Positions 10,222-35,898 of a stretch of DNA of 64,000 nt are shown here, piece by piece. Positions within the stretch are counted from its first letter, which is position 1; every line of letters starts with the position of its first letter. Below the pieces are notes generated by a model, which was not told the origin of the DNA, did not search any database, and saw only the letters and a list, made by a program, of their open reading frames with translations. The translations under genes and the position numbers were made by a program. This stretch comes from an uncultured Acidobacteriota bacterium (GTDB taxonomy: Bacteria > Acidobacteriota > Vicinamibacteria > Vicinamibacterales > Fen-181): positions 448,073 through 512,072 of the forward strand of contig CAVUJA010000002.1 of the NCBI GenBank assembly GCA_963741715.1, written 5' to 3'.

Positions 10222-10253
10222 TGACCTCGCCTGTCACGGCCCCCTGGAATACT
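10222..10253 (+). promoter_or_regulatory. Putative WYL box plus -10
   Basis: TGACCTCGCCTGTCA-N11-AATACT. Confidence 0.65.
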
Positions 10254-10272
10254 GGCATCAGGAGAACCGAGA

Positions 10273-10503
10273 ATGCTCAGCGCCCTTTTCCGGAACACGG
10301 AAGCCACCCAATGCGTTACCTGCCGCTTTTTGCAGCCCGAAGACGACCAGGAGGACGTCGTAGTGGGCGAATGCCGCGTTCACCCTCCAGCGCATAATCC
10401 GCTGGCTGGCCAAACGGACGAACTCGACACCGCAGTTGGACTCCCACGTCGCCCGTGGCCGCGAACGGAAAGCCGCGATTGGTGCGGGGCGTGGAAACGG
10501 TAG
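10273..10503 (+). CDS. Small Cys-rich metal-binding protein
   Basis: CxxC...GECRVHPP...WP...DWCG; GGAGA RBS. Confidence 0.65.
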   Translation: MLSALFRNTEATQCVTCRFLQPEDDQEDVVVGECRVHPPAHNPLAGQTDELDTAVGLPRRPWPRTESRDWCGAWKR

Positions 10504-10529
10504 AATCGGCGTCACGACGGGAGGCGCAG

Positions 10530-11243
10530 ATGGGAAGACGCGGCAACGGCTACGGGAGCGAAGACCATTTCTGGACGTATCGGACGGAGTCGAAGGACCC
10601 GCTCGACCGTTGCCTCCTGGCAGCGACCGGTTTGCGGGGCGTCCCAGCGTGGGTCTACCCGGACCCGGCACGTCCAGACATAGAGGAACCAAAGGGCATG
10701 GGTTTCTGCTCAGACCCGGCGCTTCAAGAGGAATGGGAGAAGTTCTGGCCTCAAACTGGTAACCAACAGCGTTGGGACGGCGTTGCGATGGTTGATAGGG
10801 AGTGGCTCCTAATTGAGGCGAAGGCCAATCACCCAGAATTCGTCGGTGGCCCCTGCGGTGCCTCGTTCGGGAAACGCGTTGAGCCGGGAACGCTCTCGAG
10901 TCGCCAGATGATCGAGGACGCTCTGAACCGAACGAAGGAGGCGCTAGGTGTCCATCAGGACTTCTCATGGCTCGGGAGCTACTATCAATACGCCAATCGC
11001 CTCGCGGCCCTGCATTTTCTGACTCGCCGCGGCACCGCTGCCCGCCTTGTGTTCGTTCACTTCTGTGGCGACTCATTCCCGGATGGGCGCTACTGCCCGA
11101 GCAGCGAACGAAACTGGATTCCACTGATCGAGTCGCGGCGAATCACATTGGGCCTGCCCGCCCGCCATCCTCTGTCGGATCGGGTCCATGATGTATTCCT
11201 GGATGTGCCGGTTCGGCTTCAACCAGATGCCCGTTCTGACTAG
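10530..11243 (+). CDS. Putative PD-(D/E)XK nuclease-fold protein
   Basis: WDGVA...LLIEAKAN...YYQYANRL; GGAGG RBS before the ATG at 10530. Confidence 0.65.
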   Translation: MGRRGNGYGSEDHFWTYRTESKDPLDRCLLAATGLRGVPAWVYPDPARPDIEEPKGMGFCSDPALQEEWEKFWPQTGNQQRWDGVAMVDREWLLIEAKANHPEFVGGPCGASFGKRVEPGTLSSRQMIEDALNRTKEALGVHQDFSWLGSYYQYANRLAALHFLTRRGTAARLVFVHFCGDSFPDGRYCPSSERNWIPLIESRRITLGLPARHPLSDRVHDVFLDVPVRLQPDARSD

Positions 11244-11338
11244 GTGGCTCGGACCACAAGAGCCGATGCCATTGCTGCCCGCGGTAGAACGAGCGGGCGG
11301 TCCCGGCCCTAATTCCCTCTTTCCACCGGAGCGCTGTC

Positions 11339-12808: not shown

Positions 12809-12928
12809 TGCGTAGCGTCTACCAGGCCGGAGGTCGCGGCACCGCACCGAGGCTGCCCGATAACCCGCAACGTCGTCGTGCTACGATGAGCGCCGACGAC
12901 CAGCGGCGTTGAGGGAGGCGGGACTTCT

Positions 12929-13221
12929 ATGGCGAAAGCAGGCAAGCCAAAGGGAGAGGCAGCGCAGTACCTCCCGCTCGAGAATTGGCTGCGTACCAAG
13001 GGTGAATGCACAGAGACTTGGCGCGTCGGGCAAAAGCCAAACATCAAGATCAAGGTCCCTGGGAAATACGCTCGCACCCCAGACGTAGTCGGCGTCAGGC
13101 AGACGGCGAGCGGCTGGGATGTCCTGCTCGTGGAGGCGAAGAACCCGAAAGGTGGCCATGCACTGAACGTGGGAATCGCCCAACTTGAGGCCCTCCGCCC
13201 CTGGGCCGACTTCCTGATACT
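12929..13221 (+). pseudogene. PD-(D/E)XK nuclease truncated by IS3
   Basis: TPDVVG...LLVEAK...GIAQL; the frame runs into the IS left end. Confidence 0.65.
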
Positions 13222-13275
13222 TGGCCTTGATCCGATTCCGTAGACACTTCCCGAAAGGTGGCTACGATGGGATCG

Positions 13276-13587
13276 ATGGCGAAAGAGAAACCACGACAGC
13301 GCGTCCGGCGGAGCTTCACGGATGAGTACAAAGCCGGCGCGGTCCGGCTGGTGATCGACGAGGGCAAGAGCGTGGGCCAGGCGGCCCGCGAGTTGGACCT
13401 CACCGAGTCGGCGTTACGGAGTTGGGTGGAGCGAGCCCGCGCCGATGGCGGCACGGGGAAGCCCGGCGTGCTCACGACGGCGGAGCGCGAGGAGCTGGGG
13501 CGGCTGCGGAAGGAGAATCGCACGCTCCGGATGGAGCGCGACATCCTAAAACAAGCGGCGGCCTTCTTCGCGAAAGAGAATGCGTGA
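13276..13587 (+). CDS. IS3 transposase OrfA
   Basis: RRSFTDEYKAGAV...HTH...LRMERDILKQAAAFFAKE. Confidence 0.92.
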   Translation: MAKEKPRQRVRRSFTDEYKAGAVRLVIDEGKSVGQAARELDLTESALRSWVERARADGGTGKPGVLTTAEREELGRLRKENRTLRMERDILKQAAAFFAKENA

Positions 13588-14441
13588 AGTTCGCATTCAT
13601 CGACGCCAAGAAGGCCGCGTTTCCCATCAGCGCCTTGTGCCGGTGTCTCCGGGTGTCCCGCAGCGGCTTCTACGCGTTCCGCCACCGGCCGGAGTCGACG
13701 CACGCGCGCACGGACCGACGGCTGCGCGTCGCAGTCCGCGCCTCGTTTGACGCGAGTCGCCGACGCTACGGCAGTCCGCGGGTCCATGCCGACCTGGCGG
13801 ACCAGGACGTGCGTGTCAGTCGGAAGCGGGTGGCGCGGGTCATGCGAGAGGAGGGCCTGAAAGCCCGCCCGCGGAAGCGCTTCAAGTGCACGACGATGAG
13901 CGACCACGACCAGCCGGTGGCCGCGAATCTGCTCAATCGAGACTTCACCGCCGAGGCGCCCAATCAGCGCTGGGTCGGCGACACGTCGGAGTTTCTGGTC
14001 GGAGACGGCGGGAAGCTCTATCTCGCCGTCGTCCTCGACTTGTTCTCGCGCTTCGTGGTCGGCTGGGCCGTGAGCGCGGTGAACGATCGTCACCTGACGA
14101 TGAAAGCGCTCGGGATGGCGATCAAACGGCGCTGTCCCGAGGCCGGCCTGTTGCACCATTCGGATCAAGGCTGCACGTACGCCAGCGAGGATTACCAGGC
14201 CATCCTCGAGACGTTCGGCATCACGTGCAGCATGAGCCGCCGGGGCGACTGCTACGACAATGCCGTCATGGAGAGCTTCTTCTCGACGGTGAAAGCGGAG
14301 TTGGGCGAGCACTTCGAAAGCTACGGGCTGGCGAAGGCGGAGCTGTTCGACTACATCGAGGTGTTCTACAACCAGCAGCGGCGGCATTCGACGCTCGGGC
14401 TCATCAGTCCGGCGGCTTTCGAGCGCCGCGCGGCCGCGTAG
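13584..14441 (+). CDS. IS3 transposase OrfB (DDE/rve)
   Basis: WVGDTS, HHSDQG, DNAVMESFF; GTG start overlaps the OrfA stop. Confidence 0.92.
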   Translation: MKFAFIDAKKAAFPISALCRCLRVSRSGFYAFRHRPESTHARTDRRLRVAVRASFDASRRRYGSPRVHADLADQDVRVSRKRVARVMREEGLKARPRKRFKCTTMSDHDQPVAANLLNRDFTAEAPNQRWVGDTSEFLVGDGGKLYLAVVLDLFSRFVVGWAVSAVNDRHLTMKALGMAIKRRCPEAGLLHHSDQGCTYASEDYQAILETFGITCSMSRRGDCYDNAVMESFFSTVKAELGEHFESYGLAKAELFDYIEVFYNQQRRHSTLGLISPAAFERRAAA

Positions 14442-14726
14442 GGTGTGGACGCTGCCATCCCGGTGGACGCACAGAACGCGCCCACCGTGATTTGGAAATC
14501 TCGCAGAGAACGCGAGATTCCCACAGCGCCCACGACCCGATGTACAGTTCATGAAGGGAGACGACAGAACAGACCTCAGCTAGCGTTACTCACCTGTCTA
14601 CCAAATCGGATCACGGTCAGCCACAGCTCGAGCGCGAACACCACCCGGCCCAGCGGATCGCGCCTGCGCTTGGCCGGCGCCTGCGGCACAAATCCTCCTC
14701 GTGCATGGTTTCCGGCGACTGGCGTC

Positions 14727-14758
14727 AGGATAAGCGACAGGCATGACAGGGCGGGTCA
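14727..14758 (-). promoter_or_regulatory. Putative WYL box plus -10, upstream of a gene cut by IS3
   Basis: TGACCCGCCCTGTCA-N11-TATCCT; downstream GAGGAGGA RBS and GTG give MPQAPAKRRRDPLGRVVFALELW, which abuts the IS end. Confidence 0.65.
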
Positions 14759-15384: not shown

Positions 15385-15416
15385 ATCATCTCACGCGGGT
15401 GTGACAGGGTAGGTCA
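15385..15416 (-). promoter_or_regulatory. Putative WYL box (weak -10)
   Basis: TGACCTACCCTGTCA-N11-GATGAT. Confidence 0.55.
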
Positions 15417-15571: not shown

Positions 15572-15603
15572 TGACCCACCCTGTCACACCCAGGTGCTAC
15601 AAC
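15572..15603 (+). promoter_or_regulatory. Putative WYL box plus -10
   Basis: TGACCCACCCTGTCA-N11-TACAAC; ATG follows after 6 nt. Confidence 0.6.
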
Positions 15604-16688: not shown

Positions 16689-18383
16689 CTACTGTTTCAG
16701 CGCCGGTCGCAATCCCAGCCTGTCGATAGTCCCCGCGCTGGCCACCACGGCGAGGTGCAGCCGGGCTCGACTGAGCCCGACGTAGAGCAGCGCGTTCTCT
16801 TCGTCCGGCGCAAGGTGGTCGATGCCGGTCAGGATGACCACCGGCCGCTCGAGCCCTTTGAACCGACGGACCGAATCGAGCAGCACCTTCCGCGGCTCGG
16901 CGGCCTGGTCGGTCGTCGTCCAGAAGGTGCCGATCCTCTCGCCACGCTTCAGCGGGCCGTTCGCCGACGAGCCGTAGAGCACGGCGATGTCGCGCTCGGG
17001 GACCCCCTCCTCTCGCACCAGCCGGTGCAGCACGCGTTGGATCTCACGAACTGCGACGGCCGGTGTTTCGGCGGAAATGCACTCCACGTCCCGCCCTTCC
17101 GGTCCCTTGGCGCGTAGCGGCTGACCGCGATAGAACTTCGTCGTCACCGCATGGATACGTTGGGTATTGCGCAGGTTGTCGCGCAGGACGCACTCGTTCA
17201 GCCCCGTCGGGAACGAGCTGACTCGCCGGTACACCTGCTGGTTGTCGTCGTGGAAGACGTACAGGATGCCGTCCTTTTGGTCCGCCAGGCACAGCTCGAG
17301 CGGTGGCCACCAGCTCTCGCGGAAGTCCTGACCCTCGTCGACGACGATGGCGTCGAAGCGTCGGTCTGGGAAGCGACCGAGCGCCGTGAACAGCGCGTCC
17401 GGCAGCGTCGTGTCGAAGAAGCTGGACGACAACTCGCTGTTCGGCTCCGGCAGCGGCAGGCCGGCGTCCTTCGCCATCCTCCAGCAGAAGTCGTGGAAAT
17501 TGGCGATCTCCAGGCGCTCGACGTGGCCCGAGGACCGGCGGAGGAACTCTGCAAGCGGCTTATTGAAGCAGGTGAACAGGACCCGGCACCCTTCCGCCGC
17601 GAGTCGCCTCGCCTTCTCGAGCGCGAGCACGGTCTTCCCGGTCCCGGCCCCGCCCGACACGGCCACCCGCCGCTGGCGCGACAGCATGTCGAGCACGTCG
17701 AACTGGTCCTCGGTGAGGCGGAGCAGCTCGCGGTCTTCATCCGCCAGCACGTCCCCGAGCGGCTGGCGCAGGTTGAAGCTCGGGGCGAGCAGATCCTTCA
17801 ACGTGCTCACGAGCAGCGGTGTGGGCCGGAGGCTGCCGCCCATCGCGCCATTCCAGTAGTCGAACATCCGCGCGATGCGGTCGGCCACGTGCGCCATGTC
17901 CTCGGCGAAGACGGTGATATCCCGCGGGCCGTCGGGCGTCAGCGGGCGGTGAGGGTCGTGCGAGGCGGGCAGCACCACGCCGTGACCGAGGGCCACCCAG
18001 GCCCGGCCAATCGCCGGGTGCTCCGCCAGCTTCTGCAGCAGTGCGTGCTTCGAGACACGAACCTGCTCGTAGGGGTCCTGGATGTCGTGCTCGTGGTGCG
18101 AGCGGTCGATGCTGATCCACCGCCCCGAGGCGCCGTCGCGGCACACCTGACCGCCCTTCACCTCGAGCAGGAGGATCCCCTTCTGGGGATTGGCGATCAC
18201 GAAGTCCACTTCCCCATCGCGCGCGCCCTCGCCCTTGGACTTCGCCAGCCATGCGACGCTGTAGAACACCAGGTGCCCCTCGTCCAACTGGGCCTGCAGC
18301 GCGGGGTAGACGTCCCGTTCAGCCTCGCGCGCGGGATTGCGGATCACCGTCTCCGGCAGCGGCGTCGGAAACATCGTCGGCAT
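16689..18383 (-). CDS. NERD nuclease fused to an SF1/UvrD-like helicase
   Basis: GEVDFV...LLEVKGG (NERD); GGAGTGKT, VDEGQDF, NLRN, FKGLE, YVGLSRA. Confidence 0.9.
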   Translation of the reverse strand: MPTMFPTPLPETVIRNPAREAERDVYPALQAQLDEGHLVFYSVAWLAKSKGEGARDGEVDFVIANPQKGILLLEVKGGQVCRDGASGRWISIDRSHHEHDIQDPYEQVRVSKHALLQKLAEHPAIGRAWVALGHGVVLPASHDPHRPLTPDGPRDITVFAEDMAHVADRIARMFDYWNGAMGGSLRPTPLLVSTLKDLLAPSFNLRQPLGDVLADEDRELLRLTEDQFDVLDMLSRQRRVAVSGGAGTGKTVLALEKARRLAAEGCRVLFTCFNKPLAEFLRRSSGHVERLEIANFHDFCWRMAKDAGLPLPEPNSELSSSFFDTTLPDALFTALGRFPDRRFDAIVVDEGQDFRESWWPPLELCLADQKDGILYVFHDDNQQVYRRVSSFPTGLNECVLRDNLRNTQRIHAVTTKFYRGQPLRAKGPEGRDVECISAETPAVAVREIQRVLHRLVREEGVPERDIAVLYGSSANGPLKRGERIGTFWTTTDQAAEPRKVLLDSVRRFKGLERPVVILTGIDHLAPDEENALLYVGLSRARLHLAVVASAGTIDRLGLRPALKQ

Positions 18384-18415
18384 GATGGCAGGATCATAGC
18401 CGAAGAGGCACGTGC

Positions 18416-18829
18416 TTACTCTGACGGCACGTTCGAAGCCTCCGTCCCCTGGGAACATGCTCGTTCCCAACCCGGCAGCCAGTAGTCGACGAGTTCGAAA
18501 ACCGGGTCGTCTTTGTCCTTGGCCCGCTCCCGCACAATCGCGATCACCTGGCGGCGGAAATCAGGATGCACGTAGTCGGCCTCCAGCACGTGCCATACGA
18601 AGTGATCCAGCAGCGTCAGCGCGGCTTCCCAGGACTCCACCGGGCCGATGACGCGCACAGACGGCCGGTCCGACGACGCTGACGGCGGCCGCTCATCGTT
18701 GACGACGAAGAAGGCAGTCCATCCTGTCGGTCTGCGCACGGCCGCCAGGATGAGCGACCCTCCTTCACTCACCATACGAACAATCGTCTCGCCGGCCAGG
18801 GTTGCGGGTGGTGCTGGGTGTTGCGCCAA
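18416..18829 (-). CDS. Hypothetical protein (paralogue of 29380-29781)
   Basis: Shared EGGSL and GPV..WE.AL.LLD...W...VH..F pattern. Confidence 0.65.
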   Translation of the reverse strand: MAQHPAPPATLAGETIVRMVSEGGSLILAAVRRPTGWTAFFVVNDERPPSASSDRPSVRVIGPVESWEAALTLLDHFVWHVLEADYVHPDFRRQVIAIVRERAKDKDDPVFELVDYWLPGWERACSQGTEASNVPSE

Positions 18830-18832
18830 GAC

Positions 18833-19732
18833 TCATCCTCCTTGAACCGCCGCCGCAATCGTCAGCCGGTGCAACTTCACCAGCTCCGACTGGTCGAGAC
18901 GACCGCCGGTGTAGCCGCCGGCCAGGGTGAACGCCACGCCGACGCGGTTCCGCCGCGCCCACTCGAATACCACTCGTTCACGCGCTGCAATCATAGCGGT
19001 AGTAATCCCTGCGAGACCACCGATGGCCGAGTCTTCGTGCGGATCCATGCCGGCGTTGTAGATGAGCAGGTCGAACGGCTCATCCGCCAGCGCGTCGAGC
19101 CGCGCGGCCAGCGTGGGCAGGTAGTCCTCCGCCCGGGCGATGATCTCGAGCGTAGAGCGGCTTCCTGAGTCCGCCTGATAGAAGTCGGTCCTGCACACCG
19201 AGATGTCCGCCTGGACGACACCCGGAACATCGCGGACGAGACTGTATGTGCCGCCGCCGCAGTGTGCGTCGAGGTCGAGAATGAGGATGCGCCTCGGACG
19301 CTGGCATTGAAGCGCCGTCACGGCGCGTACCGCGAGCGCGATCCCGTTGAACGTACAGAACCCGCAGCCACTGGCGCGACGCGCGTGGTGCAGGCCCGAC
19401 GAGAGCGCGCCCGCGTGCGAGCCGGTCTTGAGGCCGTGGAGCGCCGCTTCGACGACTCCGCCATTCGACGCGCAGACCGCCGTCCAGAGGCCCTCGTCCC
19501 AGCGGAAGCCGTTGGACTCGGCGAGGGAGCGCGGCTCACCTGTCCGCACGGCTCGGACGTAGTCGGGCGCGTGCACGGCCTCGAGCTGCGCCGGAACGAG
19601 CGGCGCAGGCTCCACCAGTTCAGTGCCGGCGATCGCGCGGGCACCGAGCGACTCGGCGATCCAAGCGGCCTTTCGGGTCGTGTCGAATTCTTCCCCGGCC
19701 GCCACAAAGGCATTGGAATAGAAGACCCTCAT
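18833..19732 (-). CDS. Histone deacetylase-family (Zn-dependent) hydrolase
   Basis: GLHHA, GFCTFN, DLDAHCGGGT, NAGMD, GGY. Confidence 0.9.
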   Translation of the reverse strand: MRVFYSNAFVAAGEEFDTTRKAAWIAESLGARAIAGTELVEPAPLVPAQLEAVHAPDYVRAVRTGEPRSLAESNGFRWDEGLWTAVCASNGGVVEAALHGLKTGSHAGALSSGLHHARRASGCGFCTFNGIALAVRAVTALQCQRPRRILILDLDAHCGGGTYSLVRDVPGVVQADISVCRTDFYQADSGSRSTLEIIARAEDYLPTLAARLDALADEPFDLLIYNAGMDPHEDSAIGGLAGITTAMIAARERVVFEWARRNRVGVAFTLAGGYTGGRLDQSELVKLHRLTIAAAVQGG

Positions 19733-19741: not shown

Positions 19742-19773
19742 ATGGTAGGCGCCCGGTATGACAGGGCGGGTCA
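19742..19773 (-). promoter_or_regulatory. Putative WYL box plus -10
   Basis: TGACCCGCCCTGTCA-N11-TACCAT. Confidence 0.7.
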
Positions 19774-19837: not shown

Positions 19838-20446
19838 CTATTTGTGTGGCGGATTGTCCAGGATCCGGACAACGCTCGGCCACAGCCGCGCGAAGTAGTC
19901 GCCTGACGGCGCAATCCGGCGGTCCGTCTCCTGATAGAGCCGTTCCGCAAACCGGACCATCGCGCGCGCCTCGGGACGCCGCAGACGGGCGGGATCAAGG
20001 TCACGAAGGCGCACCCGGTCCAGGCCGTCGGCGTCCTTCAGCAAGGCGGTCAGTTGCCAGGACGGATCGGCTGGCAGCGGTTCGCCGGCCGAGTGAAGGG
20101 TCACCGCCGACTGAATGGCCGGGTAGTCCTCGTCGCACACGCCTCCGCGTGCAAACAGCGCCCGAACGTCCGGCAGATCGGCCAGGCGTGCCCAGGCGTC
20201 GGCCCCATGGCGCGCACTTCTCCCGTCGTGGCGGCGAGCGATGTCGTGCAGGTAGACCGCCGCCCAGAGACGCGGCATCTCGTGGACGAACCCCGTGGCT
20301 TCGACGAGCCGGAAGGCGTGCACGAGCACGCGCGACACGTGGGCCTGGCCATGGAGCAGGCTCAAGTGCCAGAACAGCTCCGGCGGAGGAACCAGTTCCT
20401 CGTCCGGCACGGTGACCAGGGACCTGACGTCTTCGAGGCTCATCAC
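19838..20446 (-). CDS. HD-domain phosphohydrolase
   Basis: HGQAHVSRV, LHDIAR, DADGLDR. Confidence 0.85.
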   Translation of the reverse strand: MMSLEDVRSLVTVPDEELVPPPELFWHLSLLHGQAHVSRVLVHAFRLVEATGFVHEMPRLWAAVYLHDIARRHDGRSARHGADAWARLADLPDVRALFARGGVCDEDYPAIQSAVTLHSAGEPLPADPSWQLTALLKDADGLDRVRLRDLDPARLRRPEARAMVRFAERLYQETDRRIAPSGDYFARLWPSVVRILDNPPHK

Positions 20447-23400: not shown

Positions 23401-23804
23401 TCGCTCAGTTCCTCGAAGCCCGGCGCCACTCGCGCGTCCACGGGCCGCTCGCGGAGGAGGTGCGCGCAGAAGGCGTGAATGGTCCCGGCGAACAGCCGCT
23501 CCATTCCCGCGAGCGCCGTCTCGAGCCGCTCGCGCTCCTCGGCCGCCGGCTTCCTGCTCAGCCGCTCTTCGACCGCCAGCTGGAACCGTCCGCGCAGCTC
23601 CGCCGCCGCCTTGCGCGTGAAGGTGACGACGGCCAGGTGCTCCACGGTGTAGGTGCCGGCCGCGATGCCGGCCGCCATGCGCGTGGCGAGGCTATAGGTC
23701 TTGCCCGACCCGGCACCAGCCTCGACCAGGAAGTTCGTGCCGAAGTCGGACACGAGGCGGTCGCGCACCGGCTGATCGAGCGGGATCTTGCGCGGCTTAC
23801 TCAT
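20447..23804 (-). CDS. AddA/UvrD-like helicase with C-terminal PD-(D/E)XK nuclease (several frameshifts)
   Basis: AGAGSGKT, IDEFQDTD, VGDPKQSIFRFRRAD, HKAKGLE, LYVAATRA, GVIDLV...DYKT...QLAQY spread over four ORF-track segments. Confidence 0.85.
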
Positions 23805-26800
23805 GGTGGCCTCTCAGGCGGCGGTAGGACTCGAGCGCCGCGCCGGTGTCCCCTTCGATCTTGCGCGACGGCGCGACTCACGTCCTCCGCGTGACAGGCG
23901 GCCGCGAAGTCGACACCACTTGCACTGCTCCTCGGCGTCGGCCGAGACAAATGCGCCGCTGCCGATGACATCCGCCAGGTCGCGCAGCACGCTCGGCGAG
24001 CTTCGTCTTCGACGGCGCAGTGAATCACCTTCCTGCGCCGATGGCCCTTCACTGCGGGAAACAGGTAGACGCCCCGAACGACCCGCGCCTTCGGGTCGCG
24101 GGACTTCAACAGCTCCGCCGCCGCCACGCCGTAGATGGCGTGCTGCAGGCGTGTGCCTCCCGCGAACTGCCCCTTCCAGTTGTCCGGCCAGTAGCCGCCC
24201 GTCTTGTAGTCGACGACTTCGTACTCTGCCGGGCCGACCCGGTTGATGCGGTCGATCCGGCCGTGCAGCGCCATCCGCCGCTTGTCGCCCAGATCGATCA
24301 CGGTCGGCTCGGCGCTGGCGAGCGGTTCCTCTTCGTCGTCTTCCAGCGGGAATCCGAACGAGACCTCGAAGCCGAGCGGCGCCGCCCATGGAGCCCTTCG
24401 CACTCGGCGTCGATGAAGGCGTCGAGATCGTCGAGGAACTCGCGCGACTCGCGCGCGAAGACCTCGTCGGAAGGCGGCGGCATCTCGGCGCGAAGCTCGT
24501 CGAGCCGTTCCTGGCCCCATCGTGCGCAACCGCCGGCGGTCCACGGCCAGGCTGGGCTTCCGCTTCTCCGCGCGGATGGCCCGCATGACGCGCGCGAACA
24601 GCGCGTGCAGTTCGGTGCCCTTCGTGGCCGCGTCGAGCCACGCGTCATCGTCGGGCTGCCCTTCCTCGATGACTCTTCACCCCGAGCCCGTGCTCCATGA
24701 AATACCGCAGCGGGCACTTCGCCGCCTTCTCGAGCGTCGTCGCCGACATGGGACGTCCCGTGCGGCTGGGGTCGAGGACCGGGCCGGCGACGGCGACGTA
24801 GCCGTCGAACTCGGTGAAGGCGTTCGATTGCCGCTGCACTCTCGGCATAGATGCCGCGTGCGAGGGCCGGGTAGGCCCGCAGGATCGCGTCGCGCGCCGT
24901 GCTCGTAGCCTTCGTGTGCGCCAGCCACCAGCCCGAGTCGCTCACTGCAGCCGGCGGTGACGCCGGGACCGCGGACACCGGCTCGCCGAGCCACGTCCCG
25001 AGGTCCTCGTAGTTGAGCCTCCGGTCCCCCTTCATCAGCCGGAACGCTTGCAGGACGATCCACGAGGGAAACGTCTCGCGGAAGTCGCGCGTGTCGCGGC
25101 ACGAGAAGCTGAGGCAGACACGCTCGGCCGACGCGCCGATCGCGGCCAGGCGGGAGAGCGCCGCGAAGACCGCCTCGTCCTGACGCTGCGGGGACGTGCG
25201 CAGCAAGGGGTCGATGGCCGTGCGCTCCTCGTCGAGAAGGACGGCGTCCTCGACCGCCGCGGGAAACACGCCGCCCTCCTGGAGACCGACGATGAAGACC
25301 AGGCGGCGACCGTCGAATCCGGCGTCGCCGAGCGCGGAGACATGCAGGCGACCCGGGCGCGGCCGGTCGAGGCCTACCGTGAGCGAGGTGACGCGCTCGC
25401 GCAGGAATCTCAGGCCGGTGGTCAGGTCGCAACGATGGCCGGCCAGCGCCCGAAGGTCGGCGAGTGCATCTCCGACCGCGACATACGCGATCGCGTCGAG
25501 CGCATTCGATCTCCCGGCGTTGGCTTCAACAAAAGCCGCGGCGCTCTCGACAAGCGCGGCCAGCGGCACCACGCTGGCGGCCGTGGCGTCGGGCTCCGGC
25601 ACACTGGACAGCACGCCCTCGATCCACTGACGCAGCGTGGCGGTCTGCTCGGCCTTCCGCACGTTCCACGCGCGGTCGTCATCGCCCAGCTCCGTGTCCG
25701 TCGCGCGGCGGTCGTAGTTCTGCGCGAGGCGTGTCAGCGCTGGCGCGTAGGTCTCGCGGCCCCAGGTCGCCTCCGCCTTCAGCAGCAACCGCGCCGCCTG
25801 GCCCGCGGAGAGGCCGTTCTCTGTCTCTCCGAAGGCCTGCGGCGCGCAATCGCCCGACTGCAGAAGGCGACGCAAGTCGCTCGCCGAGAACTCGTTGGCG
25901 ACCCAGTCACAGAAGCGAAGAAGCAGGCGACCCGGGCGGGTCATCGTGGCGGGGACGCCGGCAGACAGCGTGACGGCCCAATCCAGGAGGGTCGCCTTCT
26001 CCCGGACCAGCAGCGAGTAGGCGTCGGACGCGCACACGACCTCGACCTGGTCGAGGGGAGAGCCGCTCGCGAGGATCCGACGGAATACTTCGTCCACCTC
26101 CGCATCTGGGCCGCCCGCATGGAAGAGGTCCAGCGTCCCATCGCCTTTGGCCTGGCTGGCGGTGCCTGGCGACTGCAGATGGCCCAGCCGACCGGCATCG
26201 GTCGTCGAGTGAGTATCGACGCGCTCGACCGGCGCGGCCAGCGCGACGGCCCTGGATGGAATCGGAACGTCACGCAGAGCCAGAGCGCGCGCCAGCACCC
26301 GCTGGCCGGGCAGCGAATCGAAGGAACCGGCGGACGAGGGGCGACCAGAACGTGTCAGGAAGCTCGATGGTGAAGTCGGTCGGCGAAATCGGGCACCAAT
26401 CCTGGTGCCTCGCGGCCTCTTCGAGCACCATCGGCATGTCGGCGACGCGGTTCGCCTCGAGATGGCGCTCGTAGGCGGCCAGCAGCGCGGTCAACTCCGC
26501 CTGCTTCTCGGAAGACTCGCTGAACGACCGTGTGGCGAGGTCCTTCGCGCGCACCCCGGCGTAGCGCAGCTCACGCACCGTCCGCCAGAGCGCGTCGGCC
26601 ATCGACGTGTGCTCGGCCATCGGCCGGAAGTAGGCGTGAGCGTCAGGCAGGTCGAGCAGCAGGCGCATCAGCAGCGCAGGCCCGAGGGGCTCTTCCGAGG
26701 GATCGATCCCCCGCTCGAGCAGGAACGGCGCCGCCATGCGGATGGCGATGTCGAGCGGGGTCGTGAAGCGCAGGTTCGCCCAATCGCACCGCTCGCGGGC

Positions 26801-26917
26801 AAGGCGGTCGCCGAGCGTCAGGCCAATCGCGTGCGAAGGCACGAACACCCACTTCGAACGGGTTGGCTCAGTGCGGCACAGCCCGGCGAGTTGGGTCACG
26901 AACGGGTCGGCATTCAT
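23801..26917 (-). CDS. AddB-like inactive helicase plus PD-(D/E)XK nuclease with Fe-S cysteines (several frameshifts)
   Basis: SATTLE...CPLRYF, GRIDRI...VVDYKTG...LQHAIY, CKWC; collinear fragments. Confidence 0.8.
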
Positions 26918-27116
26918 GCGACCTCCCGCATACGGCTGAACGGGCCGTCAGGGCCCTTGGAGACTCCGTCTCCGAACGCGGCGATGATACACCCCGCCGG
27001 AACCCTGAACTCGGCACGCCTGGGCCAGGAGTGGTATCGAAGCCCTACCTACCGCTCTTCGGGTCCTGTCGGCGAGCAGCCCCACCCGTCCGTGGTCCTC
27101 TCCTTGCCTGGCGCCG

Positions 27117-28030
27117 TCAGCACGCGTAGGCCAGCAGGTGCACCAGTTGCTGGTCCACCGCCAGCGCCGCGCCCGCGATCCGCGGCGCGCGGAGTCGCAG
27201 GTCTTCGCCAAGACCCACGGCCGGGAAGGTCTCGACAGCGGCGGCGCTCACCGACGCGAGGAAACGCTTCGGGTCGCGCCGCGCGCGCCCCTTCTTCTCT
27301 TCGCGCCGGTCCAGGGCATCGAGACCATAGCTCTCGACGATCTTCCGCATCGACTTGCGCCATGTCGCGGCACTGTCGAACAGCTCCAGGCCGACGATCG
27401 CCCCGTTGATGGCGAACACCGCACCGACCTGCCGCGGCACGGCCTCGAGCCTTGCCTGGAAAGCGTCGAGGTCGGCACGGGCCTTGTCGTACATGGCCGC
27501 CGCGGCTCGCGTGGGCGAGGGCGCGGCCATGCGCTCCGACTTGGCGTCGATATCCGCCCAGATGGCGCCCTGGTCTGCGTGGCGTTCGCCGTGCATTTGA
27601 AGCGAACAACTTACCTGCTGCACCTTCATCGCGCGACCCGACGCGTAGTGCGTCCGGCCCGCGGCAGCGAACGCGCGGGAGCGGTGCTGCCAGCGATGCG
27701 GCCTCGACGCACGAGACGGGAGCGGGAGCTTCGTGTGCGCCGGCACGAGGATCGAGAGATTGACGATGCGATTCTGCTTGGCGCCGACCAGTTCCTCGCC
27801 GTCGAGGACGAGGACCGGCACGGCTCCGTTGTTGACGATGGTGAGCTCCGGCACGTGGCCGGCGTCGGACACCTCGGTGCACGGTCACGAATCCGGCCGC
27901 CAGCGCTTCGTCGAGCGTGGCGTAGCCGGCCGGGGTCTCGATCCCCGTGCAGCAGCGGGTACATCGTCAGGTTGGCCACACCGATGGCCGGGGCGAATTC
28001 GAGTGCGTCAGCGATGGTGTGTAGGTTCAT
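27117..28030 (-). CDS. ARPP-1 (DUF6569)-like protein (frameshifted)
   Basis: VPEL...LDGEELVGAKQNRIVNLSILV, DQGAIW, GLELFD, VESYGLDA; N-terminus MNLHTIA..NLTMYPL in another frame. Confidence 0.8.
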
Positions 28031-28036: not shown

Positions 28037-28068
28037 ACTGTAGACGGCAGGTCTGACAGGTGGGGTCC
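28037..28068 (-). promoter_or_regulatory. Putative WYL box plus -10 in the divergent ARPP-1/WYL intergenic region
   Basis: GGACCCCACCTGTCA-N11-TACAGT; ATG follows after 6 nt. Confidence 0.65.
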
Positions 28069-29235
28069 ACGGTGCCGGGAAATCGTGTACCCTGTCCTCG
28101 CACACCAACCTGGAGGCACGCTACGGTCGAACGCAACGCCGAGATCATCCGCCAGTGGAAGATCCTGATCGACATCGCCACGGCGGCCGACTGCACGATT
28201 GCGTCGCTGGCGGCCAAATACGATGTGGGTGAGCGCACCATCCGCCGCGATCTCGTCGCGCTGGAGACGGCCGGCTTCACGCTCTACCCGCAGCGTGTGG
28301 ACCGCCGGAACTGCTGGCGCCTCAGCGGCAAGCCCTTGAAGGCGATCACGGAGACGACCTTCAACCTGCCCGAACTCTGCGCCTTCTACATGAACCGGAC
28401 CCAACTGGCCGCCGTGGGCGGCTCACCCATCCACGCGGATCTCCGGTCGGCCATGGCCAAGGTGAGCAAGGCGCTCGGGCCGCAGATGAAGGCGTACCTG
28501 GACAAGCTGACGATGGTGCTCGCCTGGAAGCCAGACCCGCCGCAGCGCGCCGATGTGACGGGCCACCCGGTCCCGGTGGAGTGCCTGGTGAGAGCCACCA
28601 TGGACCACAAGCGGATCGAGATGGACTACCACTCGTTCGCGGGCGGGAAGATCAAGGCGTACTCGGTGGAGCCGTATCGCCTGACGTTCGGCAACGGCGG
28701 CCTGTACCTCTTCGCGTACGTCCCCGCCTATGGCCAGATGCGCACGTTCGCCGTGCAGCGGATCAAAACCCTGAGGGTCACCGAGAGCACGTTCAGCCCG
28801 GTGCAGGAGGTGTCGTCAACGCCGTATGGCAACTCGATCGGCATGTACGCCGGCGGCAAAGCGGAACCGGTGGAGATCGAGTTTGCGCCCAGGCTGGCGC
28901 CCTACATCGAAGAGCGGGAGTGGCACCCGTCGCAGGCGATCGTCAAGCGGGCCGACGGCTCCCTCCTGTTGAAGATGACGATTGCCATCGACGTCCCGCT
29001 CCGGAGCTGGATCCTCGGATTCGGACACCAGGCGCGCGTGCTGAAACCGTCAGCGCTGGCGGAGACGATTCTGGAGGAACTCGAGGAAGCACGCGAACAG
29101 TACGCGCCGCGGATGCACTTCGAGATGCCGCCGCCCATCTACGACGACGGCCGTCAGCCCGCACTGCCCTTCCGTCCGTCGCGCCGGCCCCGAACGACCG
29201 GCCGGCGCAGGTCGTCGGCCGGGTCCAGGGCCTGA
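28060..29235 (+). CDS. WYL-domain transcriptional regulator (wHTH-WYL-WCX); true start uncertain
   Basis: VGERTIRRDLVALE HTH; VEPYRL...LYLFAY...RTFAVQRI; WHPSQ; SWILGFG...VLKP. Confidence 0.93.
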   Translation: MGSTVPGNRVPCPRTPTWRHATVERNAEIIRQWKILIDIATAADCTIASLAAKYDVGERTIRRDLVALETAGFTLYPQRVDRRNCWRLSGKPLKAITETTFNLPELCAFYMNRTQLAAVGGSPIHADLRSAMAKVSKALGPQMKAYLDKLTMVLAWKPDPPQRADVTGHPVPVECLVRATMDHKRIEMDYHSFAGGKIKAYSVEPYRLTFGNGGLYLFAYVPAYGQMRTFAVQRIKTLRVTESTFSPVQEVSSTPYGNSIGMYAGGKAEPVEIEFAPRLAPYIEEREWHPSQAIVKRADGSLLLKMTIAIDVPLRSWILGFGHQARVLKPSALAETILEELEEAREQYAPRMHFEMPPPIYDDGRQPALPFRPSRRPRTTGRRRSSAGSRA

Positions 29236-30493: not shown

Positions 30494-30747
30494 GCCGCGG
30501 GGTGCCCGCCAGTGGGCCCGCCTGCGAGTTGGCCCCCCGCTACGGAGGAGGGCTACACACCATTGGGGATCCCCAACAGTCGTTGGGAGACAGGTGCCGT
30601 CCGCATCGTCGGACCGCCGAATGCGGCTGTCGAACACCGCAACCCGCTCTCGCGGCGAACAGTCGAGCGGTTCGTGGCTGGCGGCAGCCAGTTCCAACGG
30701 GCGGAACCCATCCAGGGCCGGGCCGGGAGGGCTTCGCTGGTTCTGTT

Positions 30748-31389
30748 TCAAATGTCGCCGTCGATAAAGTGGCCTCCCAGGCCAGCCGCCTGCAGCCAGT
30801 GACGCACGTAGAACTTGGTGAACAGGTGCGCGACGAACTCCTCGGCGAGTTCCTGACGGTCGATGAAGTGGACCGGGATGCCCCATCGCTCCTGGATGGC
30901 GAGATAGCTACCGACCACCGCGTTCGGATGCGCCTGCGACTCGGTGAACGCCTCGTAACTCGAACGCATGGCGGCATACGAGGCTTCGACCACGATGGCT
31001 TTGCGCTCATACCGGGCCAGTCGTTGGCAGCGCTCGAGGAAGGTTGCGCGAAGGGGCGGCATCACCGAGCTCACGGCGTCGGCCGAGGATTTTCGCTCGA
31101 TCGTAACGACCTGCTCGAGTCCCTTGACGGAGTAGTCACCATCCCTCAGGCGGCGCTGCTCGGTACCGGCAATCCACCTCGAAAACCTGGCGAACGTGTA
31201 GCCGCAGCGGCTCTCGCCCGAGTCGATGACCAGGACTGGCTTGGGAATCCGGACCACATGTCCATCGCGACGGGCGCGGATGATGTCTCGCGGCGGTGGA
31301 ATGTCAGACCAGTCGAGGTGGACCGTGTCGAGGTCGTCAGATGCGTCCTCGGCCGGTATCCGGCGCGTTGTCTTGCGAGCAGTCTTCAT
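30748..31389 (-). CDS. ERCC4/XPF-type nuclease
   Basis: VIDSGE...GDYS...IERKS. Confidence 0.85.
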   Translation of the reverse strand: MKTARKTTRRIPAEDASDDLDTVHLDWSDIPPPRDIIRARRDGHVVRIPKPVLVIDSGESRCGYTFARFSRWIAGTEQRRLRDGDYSVKGLEQVVTIERKSSADAVSSVMPPLRATFLERCQRLARYERKAIVVEASYAAMRSSYEAFTESQAHPNAVVGSYLAIQERWGIPVHFIDRQELAEEFVAHLFTKFYVRHWLQAAGLGGHFIDGDI

Positions 31390-32663
31390 GGCAGGCGGAC
31401 CTTTCGCCGCGCCTTGCCGTCCGCCGACCGGCTCTCCAAGGCGGCATACGACGCGAAATGCGCTGCCTTCCGCGCCATCGGGCTCATGTCCTCGCCGAAT
31501 TGGGCGGCGTCGGCGCGCAGCCGGCGGACGATGCCCGCCAGTTCACCGTCGCGGCCGGCGTACCGCGCGATGCGCGCCGCAGTCGCCTCGAGGAGCGCGC
31601 GCGCCTTCCCGAACTCGCCTGCCCGGTTGAGGGCCACGGCCTCATGCCGCGCCCGGGCGGCATAGAGCGCCGCCACGGCCCGGTCCACCGTGCGGTCGCG
31701 ACGCGCGCCGTGAATGCCTGCCTCGTCCGCGCCGGTCCAGGTCGCGCCCTGCGGCGGCGACGCCAGCACGCCGTCGCGGTCGGCCAGCGTGATGCGCACG
31801 CCCGCGGCCTGGCCGAGGGGTATGGCCGGGACGTCCACGCGGATGACCACCTCGAGCTCCTGCCCGGAGACGGGATCGCCCAGGCCGATGCGGATCCCGC
31901 CGTCGGTCGCGCACGAGTCTAGGCGTGTGAGCGGCGCGGCTCGCATGCCGGCCGGAAGCTGCACCGCCAGGTTCGCGTCGCGCGCGACGACCTCGAGGGC
32001 CTCGCCCAGCTCGCTCGTCAGCAGGTCGGGGATCTGGGCCGGCGACTCGATGAGGTAGAAGTGCCCGCCGCTCTGCTCGGCCAGCTGCTGCAGCAGGTCC
32101 TCGTCGAAGTCCGCGCCCACGCCGAACGTGGACGTCACGATGTGCCGGGGGCGGAGCGACGCGGCCCGTGCCGCCAACGCCGCGGCGTCCGTGACGCCGA
32201 CGTTGGCGAGGCCGTCGGTAAGCAGCAAACACCGCCCTGCCGGCTCCTCTGCCAGGTGCGGCGCCACCTGTTCGCAGCCGGCCATCCAGCCACCCGCCAG
32301 GTCCGTGGAGCCACGCGCGTCGATCTCCTCCAGGCTTCGGACCGCGTGACGCCTGGCTTCTGCCGACGCGCTCGTGGACTCGACGACGACGTCCACGCGG
32401 TCGTCGTATGCGACCAGCGCGAACCGGTCGTCCGAACGGAGCATCCCGAGGGCCTGCGTCACGGCCTCGCGGGCCAGCCTGATCTTGCTGCCGCCCATCG
32501 ACCCCGAGCGGTCAAGGGCGAACGCGACGTGAATCGACGGCCGACCCGCCGTCCGCGGCGCGTCGGGAGCGGTCAGTGTCAGCAGGAGGTGTCGGGTCGC
32601 CGGCGAGCCGGCGCGAACTACAGAGACGTCGGTGCGAAGTGAGAGCGGCGTTAGGTGGTCCAT
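31386..32663 (-). CDS. vWA-domain protein
   Basis: MIDAS DRSGSM, GSTDL..G, LLTDGLAN, FGVG; stop overlaps the ERCC4 start. Confidence 0.9.
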   Translation of the reverse strand: MDHLTPLSLRTDVSVVRAGSPATRHLLLTLTAPDAPRTAGRPSIHVAFALDRSGSMGGSKIRLAREAVTQALGMLRSDDRFALVAYDDRVDVVVESTSASAEARRHAVRSLEEIDARGSTDLAGGWMAGCEQVAPHLAEEPAGRCLLLTDGLANVGVTDAAALAARAASLRPRHIVTSTFGVGADFDEDLLQQLAEQSGGHFYLIESPAQIPDLLTSELGEALEVVARDANLAVQLPAGMRAAPLTRLDSCATDGGIRIGLGDPVSGQELEVVIRVDVPAIPLGQAAGVRITLADRDGVLASPPQGATWTGADEAGIHGARRDRTVDRAVAALYAARARHEAVALNRAGEFGKARALLEATAARIARYAGRDGELAGIVRRLRADAAQFGEDMSPMARKAAHFASYAALESRSADGKARRKVRLP

Positions 32664-32669
32664 GCCGAC

Positions 32670-32701
32670 AGCGTAAACGGGCGCTGTGACAGGGCAGGTC
32701 A
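32670..32701 (-). promoter_or_regulatory. Putative WYL box plus -10
   Basis: TGACCTGCCCTGTCA-N11-TACGCT; ATG follows after 6 nt. Confidence 0.7.
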
Positions 32702-33008
32702 CACGCGGGAGACCGCATGGCGTGGATCTCAGGGTCACGCCCGAGCCCAACGACGGAACCGGATCGACGGAGAGGAGTCGACGCAGATGCCGGGCGCTGT
32801 CGGACCCCACTCCAGTAGATATCCGGTCCTCGCAATCACGACAGTGACCGGATGACTTCGCCCGGACGTTGGCCCTCGTTGAGATTGGACCTCTCCTGTC
32901 ATAGCCACCACAGACAATCGGCGTTGTCGCGCTCCCGTCCGGCGCACCTCGCCGTTCAGGGCTGCGGTCACCGCGTCTCGTGCAACCGCTCATTCAAGAA
33001 AGGTCGTC

Positions 33009-33981
33009 ATGTCAAAACACATCGGCGCATTCCTACTCTTGCTGGTTCTCGCCGCTTGCGGCGGCGGGAACGGCACGGCCACCTCGCCGTCGCCGACCCC
33101 AACTCCCACGACGCCAACCGTGACGACATTCTCCCTGACCGGTCAGGTGACCGATGGCGCGACCTCGGCCGCGATCTCGGGCGCCACGGTCTCGATTGGT
33201 GACGGGGTGAACTCCGGAAAGTCGACGACTACCAGTCCGGCGGGGACGTACGCCTTCTCCGCATTGCAGCAGGCAGGCTTCACCCTCACCGTCTCGGCAA
33301 CCGACTATGTCTCGACCTCCAAGGGCGTGACCCTCACGTCCAACCAGACGGTGTCCTTCCAGTTGGTGCGGGCAGGCCCGCGCACGACCTTCGGAGCGGG
33401 TCAGTATCTCGTGGGGACCGACATCGCGGCCGGCCGCTACTTCAGCGCCCCGTCCAATGGGTGTTACTGGGAACGGCAGTCCGGTCTCGGCGGAACGCTA
33501 GGCGAGATCATCGCCAACGACTTTATCGGCTTCAACGCCGCCCAGTGGATCGTGGACATCCGTTCCTCCGACCGCGCCTTCAAGACGGATGCCGACTGCG
33601 GCACGTGGTACAACACGCCTCGGCAAGGGGCGCAGGCGTCCATCCCTCCGGGAGTCTGGCTCGTTGGATCTCAGAATCACGCCGGGCACCTACCGCGCGA
33701 CTGTCGAATCCGGCTGCTACTGGGAGCGGCTGCGGGACTTCACCGGGACGCTGTCAGGAATCATCGCCAACGACTTCATCTCGTCGGCGGGTTCGCAGCT
33801 GGTATCCATCTCCGCTGGCGACGTGGGCTTCTCCAACGACGCCGACTGCGGAACCTGGACGCGGGTGAGCGGCCTGACGGCAAATGAGATACCAGTTGTC
33901 TCGGGCACTCCCGTCGAGGGCAACTGGCTTCAGAGCCGGGCGCGCAAGGCCGGGGCGATCGGCGGAGCGAGGCTTCGGTAG
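33009..33981 (+). CDS. Lipoprotein with carboxypeptidase-regulatory-like domain and duplicated GCYWER repeat (frameshift near 33675)
   Basis: Lipobox LAAC; two repeats of G.Y...GCYWER......IIANDF...DADCGTW. Confidence 0.75.
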
Positions 33982-34199
33982 GTCGGGGCCGCATCCAACA
34001 GGGTGTTGCGAGAGTGGGACCGGGTCTACGACCGCGCGCCGTAGGCTCGGCCCTCCCGAGGTCAGGGCCCGGGTCCTGGGTGCCCGCTGCGAGAGGAACA
34101 TGCGAATCCCGGAGCGCCCTCCGTTCCAGCGGGATCCCCTCGATCCCCGGCCGCCTCGTCGGCGGCGCGCTCGGAGAAGATCGCGCGGGCGTTGCGGCG

Positions 34200-35447
34200 T
34201 CAAGCGAGGCCCGCGCGAATGTCGTTGACTATGGAGGCCCTGACAACCTCGTCGGTGACACCCGCACCGCGGTTTGAGTAGTGCATCACTCTGTGCGGCC
34301 GTGGACCCGCGGGAATCAGATTCCGACGTTGCAGGATCGTCACCAGGTCAGTTGAAGCACTTCCAACCGTGAAGATGGTCCTCGGCGACACCTGGTGGAT
34401 CTCCCAAGCGAGGACATCGGCCCATGCGACGGCCAACTCCTTCTTGTCGCGGGTGTTGAAGTCTCCCACCACGTCCGCTTCTTTGATGACGTTGGTGATA
34501 TAGCACCGCCAGCCACCCGACTCCAGAGGAGCCGTTGTCTTGAGGCCCAGTTCGCACAGGGCCGGTCGGAACCGCTTCACGCAGTTGCTCGCCACGCCCC
34601 CGCACCATTGATCCTCTATCGTCGGTGCCGCTCCGCTGATCGTGCGCACGTGGGCCTTCTCGACGCCAGCCAGGCTCGGGTTCTCGCAGATGAACATGAC
34701 GTCGGACGGCACTTGTCCGAGCGCACCATAGAGCCACGGGAACTCACTGATCTGGCGCTGTGCGTGTTTCGCCCCCATCTCCACAAGCCGCGCGTTGATC
34801 TTGCTCCGCAGGACATCGAAATGCGTCAATTGCAGACCGTCGGGTACGAACGGTGGCGTGCTTACGCTGCCCGGCGCTGACCTGGTCTCAACATGCTCAA
34901 CTGGAGTTTGATAAGGACGCTCGCCCGTCCGGGCTGTCACGATAGGCCCAGCGCCGGGCGCAGCGCTTCCAACCGGTTGACCGGCCCGGTCGTACCCGAC
35001 GCAAGATTCGGCAGGTGCGTCTGCCTGATGACGACCGGCGTTGTAATCCCTCCGGGTGGAGGCAATGTAGTCGTGGTGCAGCGCATAGTCAGACCTTGAA
35101 TTGGGAATCTCAACGGTCCACAGGACGCACAGCGTGCCGTCCGTGAAGTGCCAATGCCGGTTCTGCTCGTAGAGCCAGTTCTGGTAGATGGCAATCGGGA
35201 GGCCGGTGAAGTCTCCGAACTTCCAACTGGTGCTCTCCAGCCAAGACTTGACCTTCAGAGCGGCTGTCCGAGCGATTGGAATGGCTCGTCGGATCTGTTG
35301 CGGTGATGACAGGTCCAGGTGGTTCACCGCGAGCCCTGCCGCACGTATCGCCTCAAGCCCCCCGCTCGCTGCAAAGGGTATCGACATGACTCCCCTCCCT
35401 GCCGTGTGGCGCCCCAGAATTTTCGATGTGCTACCGCTCCTGACCAC
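34200..35447 (-). CDS. Protein with C-terminal uracil-DNA-glycosylase-like domain
   Basis: VMFICENPS, YITNVIKE, EI..VSP..IFTVG, MHYS. Confidence 0.6.
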   Translation of the reverse strand: MVRSGSTSKILGRHTAGRGVMSIPFAASGGLEAIRAAGLAVNHLDLSSPQQIRRAIPIARTAALKVKSWLESTSWKFGDFTGLPIAIYQNWLYEQNRHWHFTDGTLCVLWTVEIPNSRSDYALHHDYIASTRRDYNAGRHQADAPAESCVGYDRAGQPVGSAAPGAGPIVTARTGERPYQTPVEHVETRSAPGSVSTPPFVPDGLQLTHFDVLRSKINARLVEMGAKHAQRQISEFPWLYGALGQVPSDVMFICENPSLAGVEKAHVRTISGAAPTIEDQWCGGVASNCVKRFRPALCELGLKTTAPLESGGWRCYITNVIKEADVVGDFNTRDKKELAVAWADVLAWEIHQVSPRTIFTVGSASTDLVTILQRRNLIPAGPRPHRVMHYSNRGAGVTDEVVRASIVNDIRAGLA

Positions 35448-35484
35448 CCGTGAAAGGTGGCGCAGTCGTAGAACGCTAGTTCTG

Positions 35485-35760
35485 CTATGTCACTGCCACG
35501 CTCCGGCTGCATCGCAGTACCGAGACAAACCGTGCGAAGAACTCCCGAAGTACCTCAACGTCTTCAGGATGTTCTTGCAGCGAGTGCACCCAGCCGTGGA
35601 CGGACATCGGGTCCGCAGCGATTGCCACCACAGACTGCCGCGGCGCGCCCTGAATTGTCATGATTCCGTGCGCATAGCGATTCAGTGCCCCGTTGTGGCG
35701 CGTGCAGAACGCGATGTCCTCGGAGACTCGCGAACCGTAGATCAACTCAATCGCTTGCAC
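35485..35760 (-). CDS. Hypothetical protein
   Basis: GGGAGGG RBS; downstream of the box at 35884. Confidence 0.4.
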   Translation of the reverse strand: MQAIELIYGSRVSEDIAFCTRHNGALNRYAHGIMTIQGAPRQSVVAIAADPMSVHGWVHSLQEHPEDVEVLREFFARFVSVLRCSRSVAVT

Positions 35761-35866
35761 TGAAATGCCCTCCCTGTTCCCAGACCTGGCGGCGCAACCA
35801 CGATCGACAGGCTCGTGCGGGGACCGCCAACGTCGGCGCGGCCGCGATCCCGCAGATTCTACCTGA

Positions 35867-35898
35867 AGGATACCGGCCAGGCATGACGGGTGAGGTCA
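35867..35898 (-). promoter_or_regulatory. Putative WYL box plus -10
   Basis: TGACCTCACCCGTCA-N11-TATCCT. Confidence 0.65.

Follow-up and report, generated by a model that had tools for sequence, protein, structure and literature searches.

The stretch of DNA analyzed here, called the window (64,000 nucleotides, positions 448,073 to 512,072 of contig CAVUJA010000002.1), belongs to an uncultured Acidobacteriota bacterium of the order Vicinamibacterales. It carries two tandem elements at the tmRNA gene, as indicated by the recurrence of the tmRNA 3' end at two downstream positions (Table 1). Element 1, an island of 34 kb with 66% GC compared to 72% on its left flank, encodes a regulator with a WYL domain and contains nine copies of a short sequence, the box, each placed in front of a -10 hexamer. 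About 20 island genes, by tally, lie behind the boxes.

The box has the consensus TGACC-N3-CCTGTCA (15 bases), ends 11 bp upstream of the -10 hexamer and occurs in a single orientation. A preliminary description of this DNA had listed eight such 15-mers with their hexamers; all eight were found again at the same positions and strands with the 11-bp spacer, and five of the hexamers fit TAnnnT as described, but a ninth site, 32887(+) GGACCTCTCCTGTCA / GACAAT, had been missed. The one-mismatch box search of the window gave nine matches, compared to a mean of 0.24 and a maximum of 2 in shuffled sequences (0/100 shuffles reached nine). A weight matrix of the box and -10 positions, built from the nine island sites, was scanned over the whole genome (5.67 Mb, 69% GC). 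Exactly 12 sites scored at least 25.6 bits, nine inside the window and three outside, and the next score was 18.0. In leave-one-out runs, each omitted site was still ranked within about the top 12, and the three sites outside the island, absent from matrix training, all showed TAnnnT at 11 bp. The box is a real and specific promoter element. The claim that the boxes point at gene starts holds clearly for the sites at 10222, 15572, 19759, 28054, and 32687 and fairly for 15402 and the new 32887. The site at 14744 meets an IS3-type element about 130 bp on, and that at 35884 faces only a weak frame of 91 amino acids (aa) before a UDG-like gene.

Table 1. Boxes, genes, and element boundaries in the window (ORF, open reading frame)
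Feature	Position	Strand	Remarks
tmRNA gene	6168..6520	+	Left attachment site at its 3' end (6496-6519)
Large serine recombinase (integrase)	6398..8170	-	Pfam Resolvase, Recombinase, Zn ribbon; CcrB/XisF-like
MerR-like gene	8420-9031		
Box 1 and -10 (AATACT)	10222..10253	+	Heads 76-aa CxxC ORF 10273-10500 and three uncharacterized ORFs to ~13243
IS3-type element	13228..14613	+	Terminal inverted repeats; breaks up the 12929 ORF as well as the sequence after box 2
Box 2 and -10 (TATCCT)	14727..14758	-	Target cut by IS3-type element ~130 bp downstream
Box 3 and -10 (GATGAT)	15385..15416	-	Heads uncharacterized 207-aa ORF 14756-15379
Box 4 and hexamer TACAAC	15572..15603	+	Leaderless ATG at +6 of staphylococcal-nuclease-family gene 15610-16323
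Operon under box 5	16689..19732	-	HDAC-family deacetylase 19732-18833; NERD nuclease-UvrD helicase 18470-16689
Box 5 and -10 (TACCAT)	19742..19773	-	Heads HDAC / NERD-UvrD operon
Operon under box 6	19838..28030	-	ARPP-1 28030-27117; AddB-like PD-(D/E)XK 26917-23803; AddA-like helicase-nuclease 23804-20453; weak HD-domain ORF 20443-19838
Box 6 and -10 (TACAGT)	28037..28068	-	Leaderless ATG at +6 (ARPP-1 operon); divergent from WYL gene
wHTH-3HB-WYL-WCX regulator	28123..29235	+	Likely start ACG at 28123 behind GGAGG site
Operon under box 7	30748..32663	-	VWA protein (leaderless ATG at +6), ERCC4 nuclease; further uncharacterized ORFs to 29380
Box 7 and -10 (TACGCT)	32670..32701	-	Heads VWA / ERCC4 operon
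Box 8 and -10 (GACAAT)	32887..32918	+	Heads lipoprotein-like Ig-fold gene 33009-33887
Box 9 and -10 (TATCCT)	35867..35898	-	Heads weak 91-aa ORF, then UDG-superfamily gene 35447-34200
19-bp repeat of tmRNA 3' end	40950..40968	+	Right end of element 1
24-bp repeat of tmRNA 3' end	47953..47976	+	Right end of second, 7-kb element

The three outside sites precede a type I-C CRISPR-Cas operon (cas3 first, its array counting at least 36 repeats), an SNF2 helicase gene with PADLOC HmaA/DrmD as its closest resemblance, and a conserved gene for a small Arg-rich protein, the neighborhood of which is common to a relative. A second, chromosomal WYL gene is divergent from recQ, and its product is 59% identical to the island copy with the same recognition helix, VGERTIRRDL. 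A 28-row tree places them in sister subclades within the genus (bootstrap not settled), and therefore the island WYL protein appears to be a home-grown paralogue. The preliminary description had suggested a genome scan for enrichment of the motif in the island and had proposed a regulon belonging to the island and served by its one WYL protein. The enrichment is there, with nine of the 12 strong sites, but full-strength sites lie outside as well, and neither the confinement to the island nor the single regulator was supported. A private regulon, in which the box is read by the island WYL alone as a portable, self-contained switch, would fit the 9/12 sites within a 34-kb element whose own WYL gene faces box 6, and the separate subclades of the island and recQ-linked copies. 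It is made highly unlikely by the three equal sites elsewhere, one of them at a conserved chromosomal locus, by the identical helix of the paralogue, and by the order-wide range of the box.

That range was followed in related genomes (G000 is the present genome, other G numbers are relatives' genomes, and L numbers are loci examined). The box with A...T at 11 bp was present in 31 of 41 genomes, the present one and 40 relatives, compared to one match for the reversed control. The strict site occurred in 14/28 genomes of the host order and in 3/273 other Acidobacteriota genomes, and the box alone, with the -10 element ignored, gave 112 matches compared to 15 in the control. Both -10 bases, A and T, were carried by 69/102 exact boxes outside G000 (by tally; chance about 2.4%). 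An ATG was located 6 to 7 nt past the hexamer at 29/101 sites, with any other offset at four sites at most; as such an ATG marks leaderless transcripts, the -10 assignment is independently supported. In the column counts of box sites across the order, for which loci were selected by the -10 pattern and the spacer counts were thus not used as a test, no TTGACA-like element was seen at the -35 position and TGAC was preceded by T at only 18% of sites. The box is order-wide in the host order and nearly absent from the remaining phylum. One genome of the same family has five boxes in about 20 kb (L078-L079; phosphatases, HDAC, and YbjN), far from its WYL gene. Near 11900 of L072, a locus of another bacterium with a 30%-identical WYL protein, a TGACA-N5-TGTCC dyad lies 11 bp before TATACT, hinting that the box geometry may be general.

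The distribution of the box follows that of the WYL clade. In 19 genomes of other families, the site was found in 12/13 WYL-positive and 0/6 WYL-negative genomes (Fisher p 2.6e-4, with kin not independent). Sites of at least 17 bits lay within 1.5 kb of 18/40 WYL loci and 0/19 control loci, and 14 of the WYL-locus sites stand directly upstream of the WYL gene and point away from it.

The island WYL protein matches Pfam HTH_DeoR, WYL, and WCX, which is the class A layout of a wHTH (winged helix-turn-helix) at the N terminus followed by WYL and WCX. Its structure model (pLDDT 77) is composed of wHTH, three-helix bundle (3HB), WYL, and WCX, with a fold match to DriD at E 2e-15. DriD was the best PDB match both by profile (E 3e-24) and by fold, and the profile E values were 1e-21 to 1e-24 for DriD/PafBC compared to 1e-4 to 1e-6 for BrxR/CapW. 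Arg34 and Arg38, nearly or fully invariant in the clade, align with DriD Arg37 and Arg41. The candidate ligand pocket keeps Tyr165, Tyr191, Arg203, and Phe205, compared to the DriD set Y168, S172, R178, Y192, R204, W206, R207, and Y240, and single-stranded DNA (ssDNA) is a likely, though not certain, ligand of this partly conserved pocket. No named NCBIfam family was assigned to either WYL protein. A QxxLPF-like C-terminal tail (29190-29210) recurs in many clade members and presumably resembles clamp-binding motifs, as may the QLDL or LPF motifs of the small proteins behind the box.

The start of the WYL gene had been placed at 28060, which falls inside the box at 28054. Comparison favors the conserved weak ACG at 28123 as the likely start: ACG follows a ribosome-binding motif, GGAG(G), in 8/9 WYL genes of the genus, including both copies of this genome (28112-28125 in the window), ATG or GTG occupies the same place in WYL genes of other families, and no anchor was obtained at 5/40 loci. 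The upstream extensions of WYL genes called in databases are unrelated to one another. Loci bearing the ACG include L009-L011, L013, L015, L016, and L034.

Among characterized WYL regulators, DriD of Caulobacter crescentus is the closest in layout. DriD covers the -35 position and recruits polymerase via the beta subunit and alpha-CTD (PMC13004042), its motif is given as CGAC-N7-GTCG, and its Arg37 and Arg41 are described as reading the guanines of GAC/GTC. Two DriD promoters printed there, placed by eye and with bapE left unplaced, have 11 bp between the end of the 15-bp core and an NAnnnT hexamer. Shared features are the wHTH-3HB-WYL-WCX architecture, the xGAC-N7-GTCx core, the 11 bp to the -10 element, the lack of a -35 element, and the coexistence with LexA. 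Equivalents of Arg37/Arg41, Tyr168, Tyr192, and Arg204 are also shared, as is a gene divergent from its target, comparable to the driD bidirectional promoter described in PMC13004042. The proteins differ in being about 20% identical and in the Arg found here at the place of Glu40, and the present system differs by its mostly defense-type predicted targets and the island-borne paralogue. By sequence, neither the CGAC-N7-GTCG motif with an AT-rich centre nor Glu40 of a strict DriD orthologue was found.

DdaA of the Moraxellaceae resembles the present system in predicted output, as a WYL activator of defense (CRISPR and restriction) and repair (recA and ssb) genes with a related dyad, reported as CGWCA-N5-TGWCG. 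It also shares the change of the first ligand-motif Arg to Ala, a position matched via DriD and PafB numbering and not by direct alignment; no DdaA sequence appeared among the PDB matches. DdaA reportedly activates in spite of this change, and two pocket tyrosines are still needed for its damage response. DdaA replaces LexA, while a LexA domain is encoded in 40/41 genomes here, and its site is reported upstream of the start by about 50 bp, compared to about -38 to -24 at the leaderless starts here. As regards PafBC, the downstream TGTC half-site is in register with its -26 element (tTGTCRgtg-8nt-TannnT, PMC5656591), and both systems have two recA promoters, one LexA-controlled and one not. PafBC is a heterodimer from adjacent pafB-pafC that reads one half-site, whereas single genes at two distant loci are found here, and the full dyad suggests that the WYL protein may act as a homodimer. 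SiwR of actinobacteria differs in controlling one operon. BrxR and CapW share the location of the WYL gene inside a defense island, but each represses a single adjacent operon, compared to 12 dispersed sites here, and both are far weaker matches. An ARPP-WYL gene pair was already noted and predicted to be repressed and ADP-ribose-sensing (PMC9503650). The same pair occurs here, and the targets also include genes for TY-chaperones and cysteine phosphatases; the available passages of PMC9503650 give no operator, and no ARG gene was seen among the first genes scanned here. The system combines, as judged from sequence, a DriD-like geometry with a DdaA-like output, and falls outside strict DriD orthologues, PafBC, and BrxR/CapW. 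No earlier report of the box, the regulon, or the ACG start was found in the searchable literature, with subscription papers, bioRxiv supplements, and regulon databases outside its scope, and the supplement of PMC12392091 gave no match to Acidobacteri, Vicinamibacter, or Luteitalea.

The first genes behind 101 sites were sorted by manual tally. The most common, about 19, encode small Arg-rich proteins with tails RRRAQIAAR or AHRxRMLxHL. They are followed by ARPP-1 (about nine), YbjN/TY-chaperone (eight), HDAC (six), SNF2 defense helicases (five), cas operons (four), VWA proteins (four), nucleases (three), AddB-like proteins (three), cysteine phosphatases (two), secreted or Ig-fold proteins (about seven), and recA (twice). 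A type II methylase, E1-E2, Ppl-like, sbcD, ssb, clpS-clpA, and a DEAD-box helicase occurred once each, the remainder was uncharacterized, and many sites had a first gene without a Pfam match. The small Arg-rich proteins are 60 to 190 aa long, some with CxxC...CxxC and some with QLDL, often divergent from the WYL gene, and the member in G000 is frameshifted. This target had no Pfam match, and the Atlas gave only unnamed Acidobacteriota clusters of low recognition value. Loci of the family include L003:7211-7491(-), L092-L094, L108, L110, L111, L113, and L122-L124. As predicted from their products, the box targets are mostly defense or conflict genes with few repair genes.

Independence from LexA, proposed in the preliminary description, is supported at the level of promoter sequence. 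The LexA box was readable from lexA promoters, and a LexA matrix built from 13 sites scored 2.6 to 9.3 at best at the 12 box promoters, compared to a background 95th percentile of 9.5 and to 18.4 at lexA itself. A LexA-box-like direct repeat (TTC-N7-TTTG type) is conserved throughout the order between TTGAC and the -10 element of lexA (L134-L145 and near 761700 of G000:C1). In two relatives, G039 and G040 (L037 and L127), recA has tandem promoters, with the LexA-box type upstream and the WYL-box type downstream; mycobacterial recA likewise has two promoters, one of them LexA-controlled (PMC5656591). Upstream of recA in G000 (L146) lie a hairpin and repeat units of 25-30 bp; a WYL box is absent there, as is a clear LexA box.

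With a probability of roughly 0.7, the box would be the operator of an order-wide WYL activator of the DriD/DdaA type, acting at promoters without a -35 element and triggered by single-stranded nucleic acid. The regulon is best read as one used heavily by the island and not as an island-private switch, the concept itself being known from DdaA and DriD. Activation of about 20 island genes by a WYL protein, as put forward in the preliminary description, fits the DriD/PafBC register of these promoters, though for a regulon confined neither to the island nor to one protein. The WYL dimer would read the two GAC/GTC half-sites through Arg34 and Arg38, cover the -35 position, and recruit the housekeeping holoenzyme as DriD does. 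The trigger, with moderate confidence, would be ssDNA from damage or invading DNA, and the island copy and the recQ-linked paralogue would both serve all 12 sites in G000. The predicted output comprises CRISPR-Cas, SNF2 restriction-like systems, modules of ARPP-1, TY-chaperone, phosphatase, deacetylase, and VWA proteins, the AddAB-like pair, and the small Arg-rich protein, together with recA and ssb in some families, in a regulon that may run parallel to that of LexA.

Several findings weigh against an order-wide, ssDNA-triggered activator. In 16 further genomes of the order, the strict pattern was found in 5/10 WYL-positive and 1/6 WYL-negative genomes (p 0.31); the matrix, scanned over the WYL loci of five strict-pattern misses and thus in WYL-positive genomes only, showed sites of 20 to 28 bits beside the WYL gene in 4/5. 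No strict site was found in G015, G095, and G287 despite their WYL gene, and no clade WYL was found in eight box-carrying genomes, seven of the own family (83 to 100% complete, two rated 100%) and G226. The chromosomal paralogue has no adjacent box (best 9.3 bits), and neither has recA of G000. Compared to DriD, the outer bases are T/A (TGAC/GTCA) and the spacer is asymmetric and GC-rich in place of AT-rich. In the pocket, DriD Arg207 is replaced by Ala (RTFA, with A206 invariant in 22/22) and Arg178 by Tyr. The ARPP-1, AddB-like, and AddA-like genes of the island bear about ten single-base frameshifts, while they are intact in L068.

If the box were read instead by a MerR-type activator, such as the product of the MerR-like gene of the island, or by an alternative sigma factor, this would account for the eight genomes with boxes in which no clade WYL was found. 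TGACC also looks somewhat like a -35 element, at a distance of 21 bp from the -10 element, in the part that it matches. Boxes adjoin WYL genes in many families, none occurs in the six WYL-less genomes of other families, the low frequency of T before TGAC speaks against a -35 element, and the dyad fits the RTxRRD helix, which together render such a reader very improbable.

The altered ssDNA pocket and the position of the box over the -35 region would suit a WYL repressor that leaves the box on binding a ligand, for example ADP-ribose or an RNA fragment. Such repression has been proposed for WYL genes next to ARPP and ARG systems (PMC9503650), whose ARPP-1, TY-chaperone/YbjN, and cysteine-phosphatase genes recur among the targets, and BrxR and CapW repress defense operons. 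Repression is improbable, as the missing TTGACA-like element would leave scant basal promoter to repress, the fixed one-way 11-bp spacing is a requirement of an activator, the match to DriD/PafBC is far better than that to BrxR/CapW, and the reported DdaA activates with the same Arg-to-Ala change.

The frameshifts bear on a different possibility, a genuine regulon in the order of which this island, now in decay, would keep the boxes as relics. A frame change was seen in only 1/27 non-island genes compared (8,930 aligned residues), in contrast to the many single-base frameshifts of island genes; the island also has the IS3 insertion and a broken tyrosine integrase gene, and all three genes behind the outside sites (cas3, SNF2 helicase, small gene) look broken too. 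On the other hand, the spacing is intact at all nine boxes, open frames remain for WYL, HDAC, VWA, nuclease, and recombinase, and errors of assembly where coverage is low may explain the breaks. In contigs from 4/16 listed runs, which cover only pieces from relatives, the additional bases of positions 27879 and 27941 are missing, which is uninformative on the breaks of this genome; a look for RNA data sets holding the sequence listed none, which favors neither side. A decayed island with remnant boxes is rather unlikely.

The target of box 1 has a counterpart at L068, where an ORF 60% identical to it is likewise headed by a box. The ORF at 19838-20443 was considered as a DSP phosphatase and rejected. 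Two box-free gene pairs lie at 37249-40513, one with a PADLOC PDC-M21B match and the other with a weak match to an AbiEii-type nucleotidyltransferase. The second element (40969-47976) encodes SoFic, a TOTE primase-helicase, and an Avs3a-like fragment and has zero boxes. Beyond both elements, at 53285-53773, a short second copy resembles the ends of the ARPP-1 and AddA genes.

Tentatively, unrelated mobile defense cassettes (CRISPR I-C and I-G, SNF2 restriction-like, methylase, E1-E2, and counter-ADP-ribosylation) might share one 32-bp promoter across the order and thereby plug into one ssDNA-sensing WYL activator, of which islands may bring a spare copy and which the ACG start might keep scarce. 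The oldest target would then be the small Arg-rich protein, which may halt growth like DidA and AciT. The order-wide activator reading yields an exact-site prediction of a stress and anti-phage regulon parallel to LexA in a largely uncultured acidobacterial order, and the specificity of the box suffices for its use in probing for uncharacterized defense genes. The ARPP-WYL pairing becomes testable as activation with a named operator, contrary to the repression guessed in PMC9503650. It would also show how an activator rather than a repressor could run an entire island.

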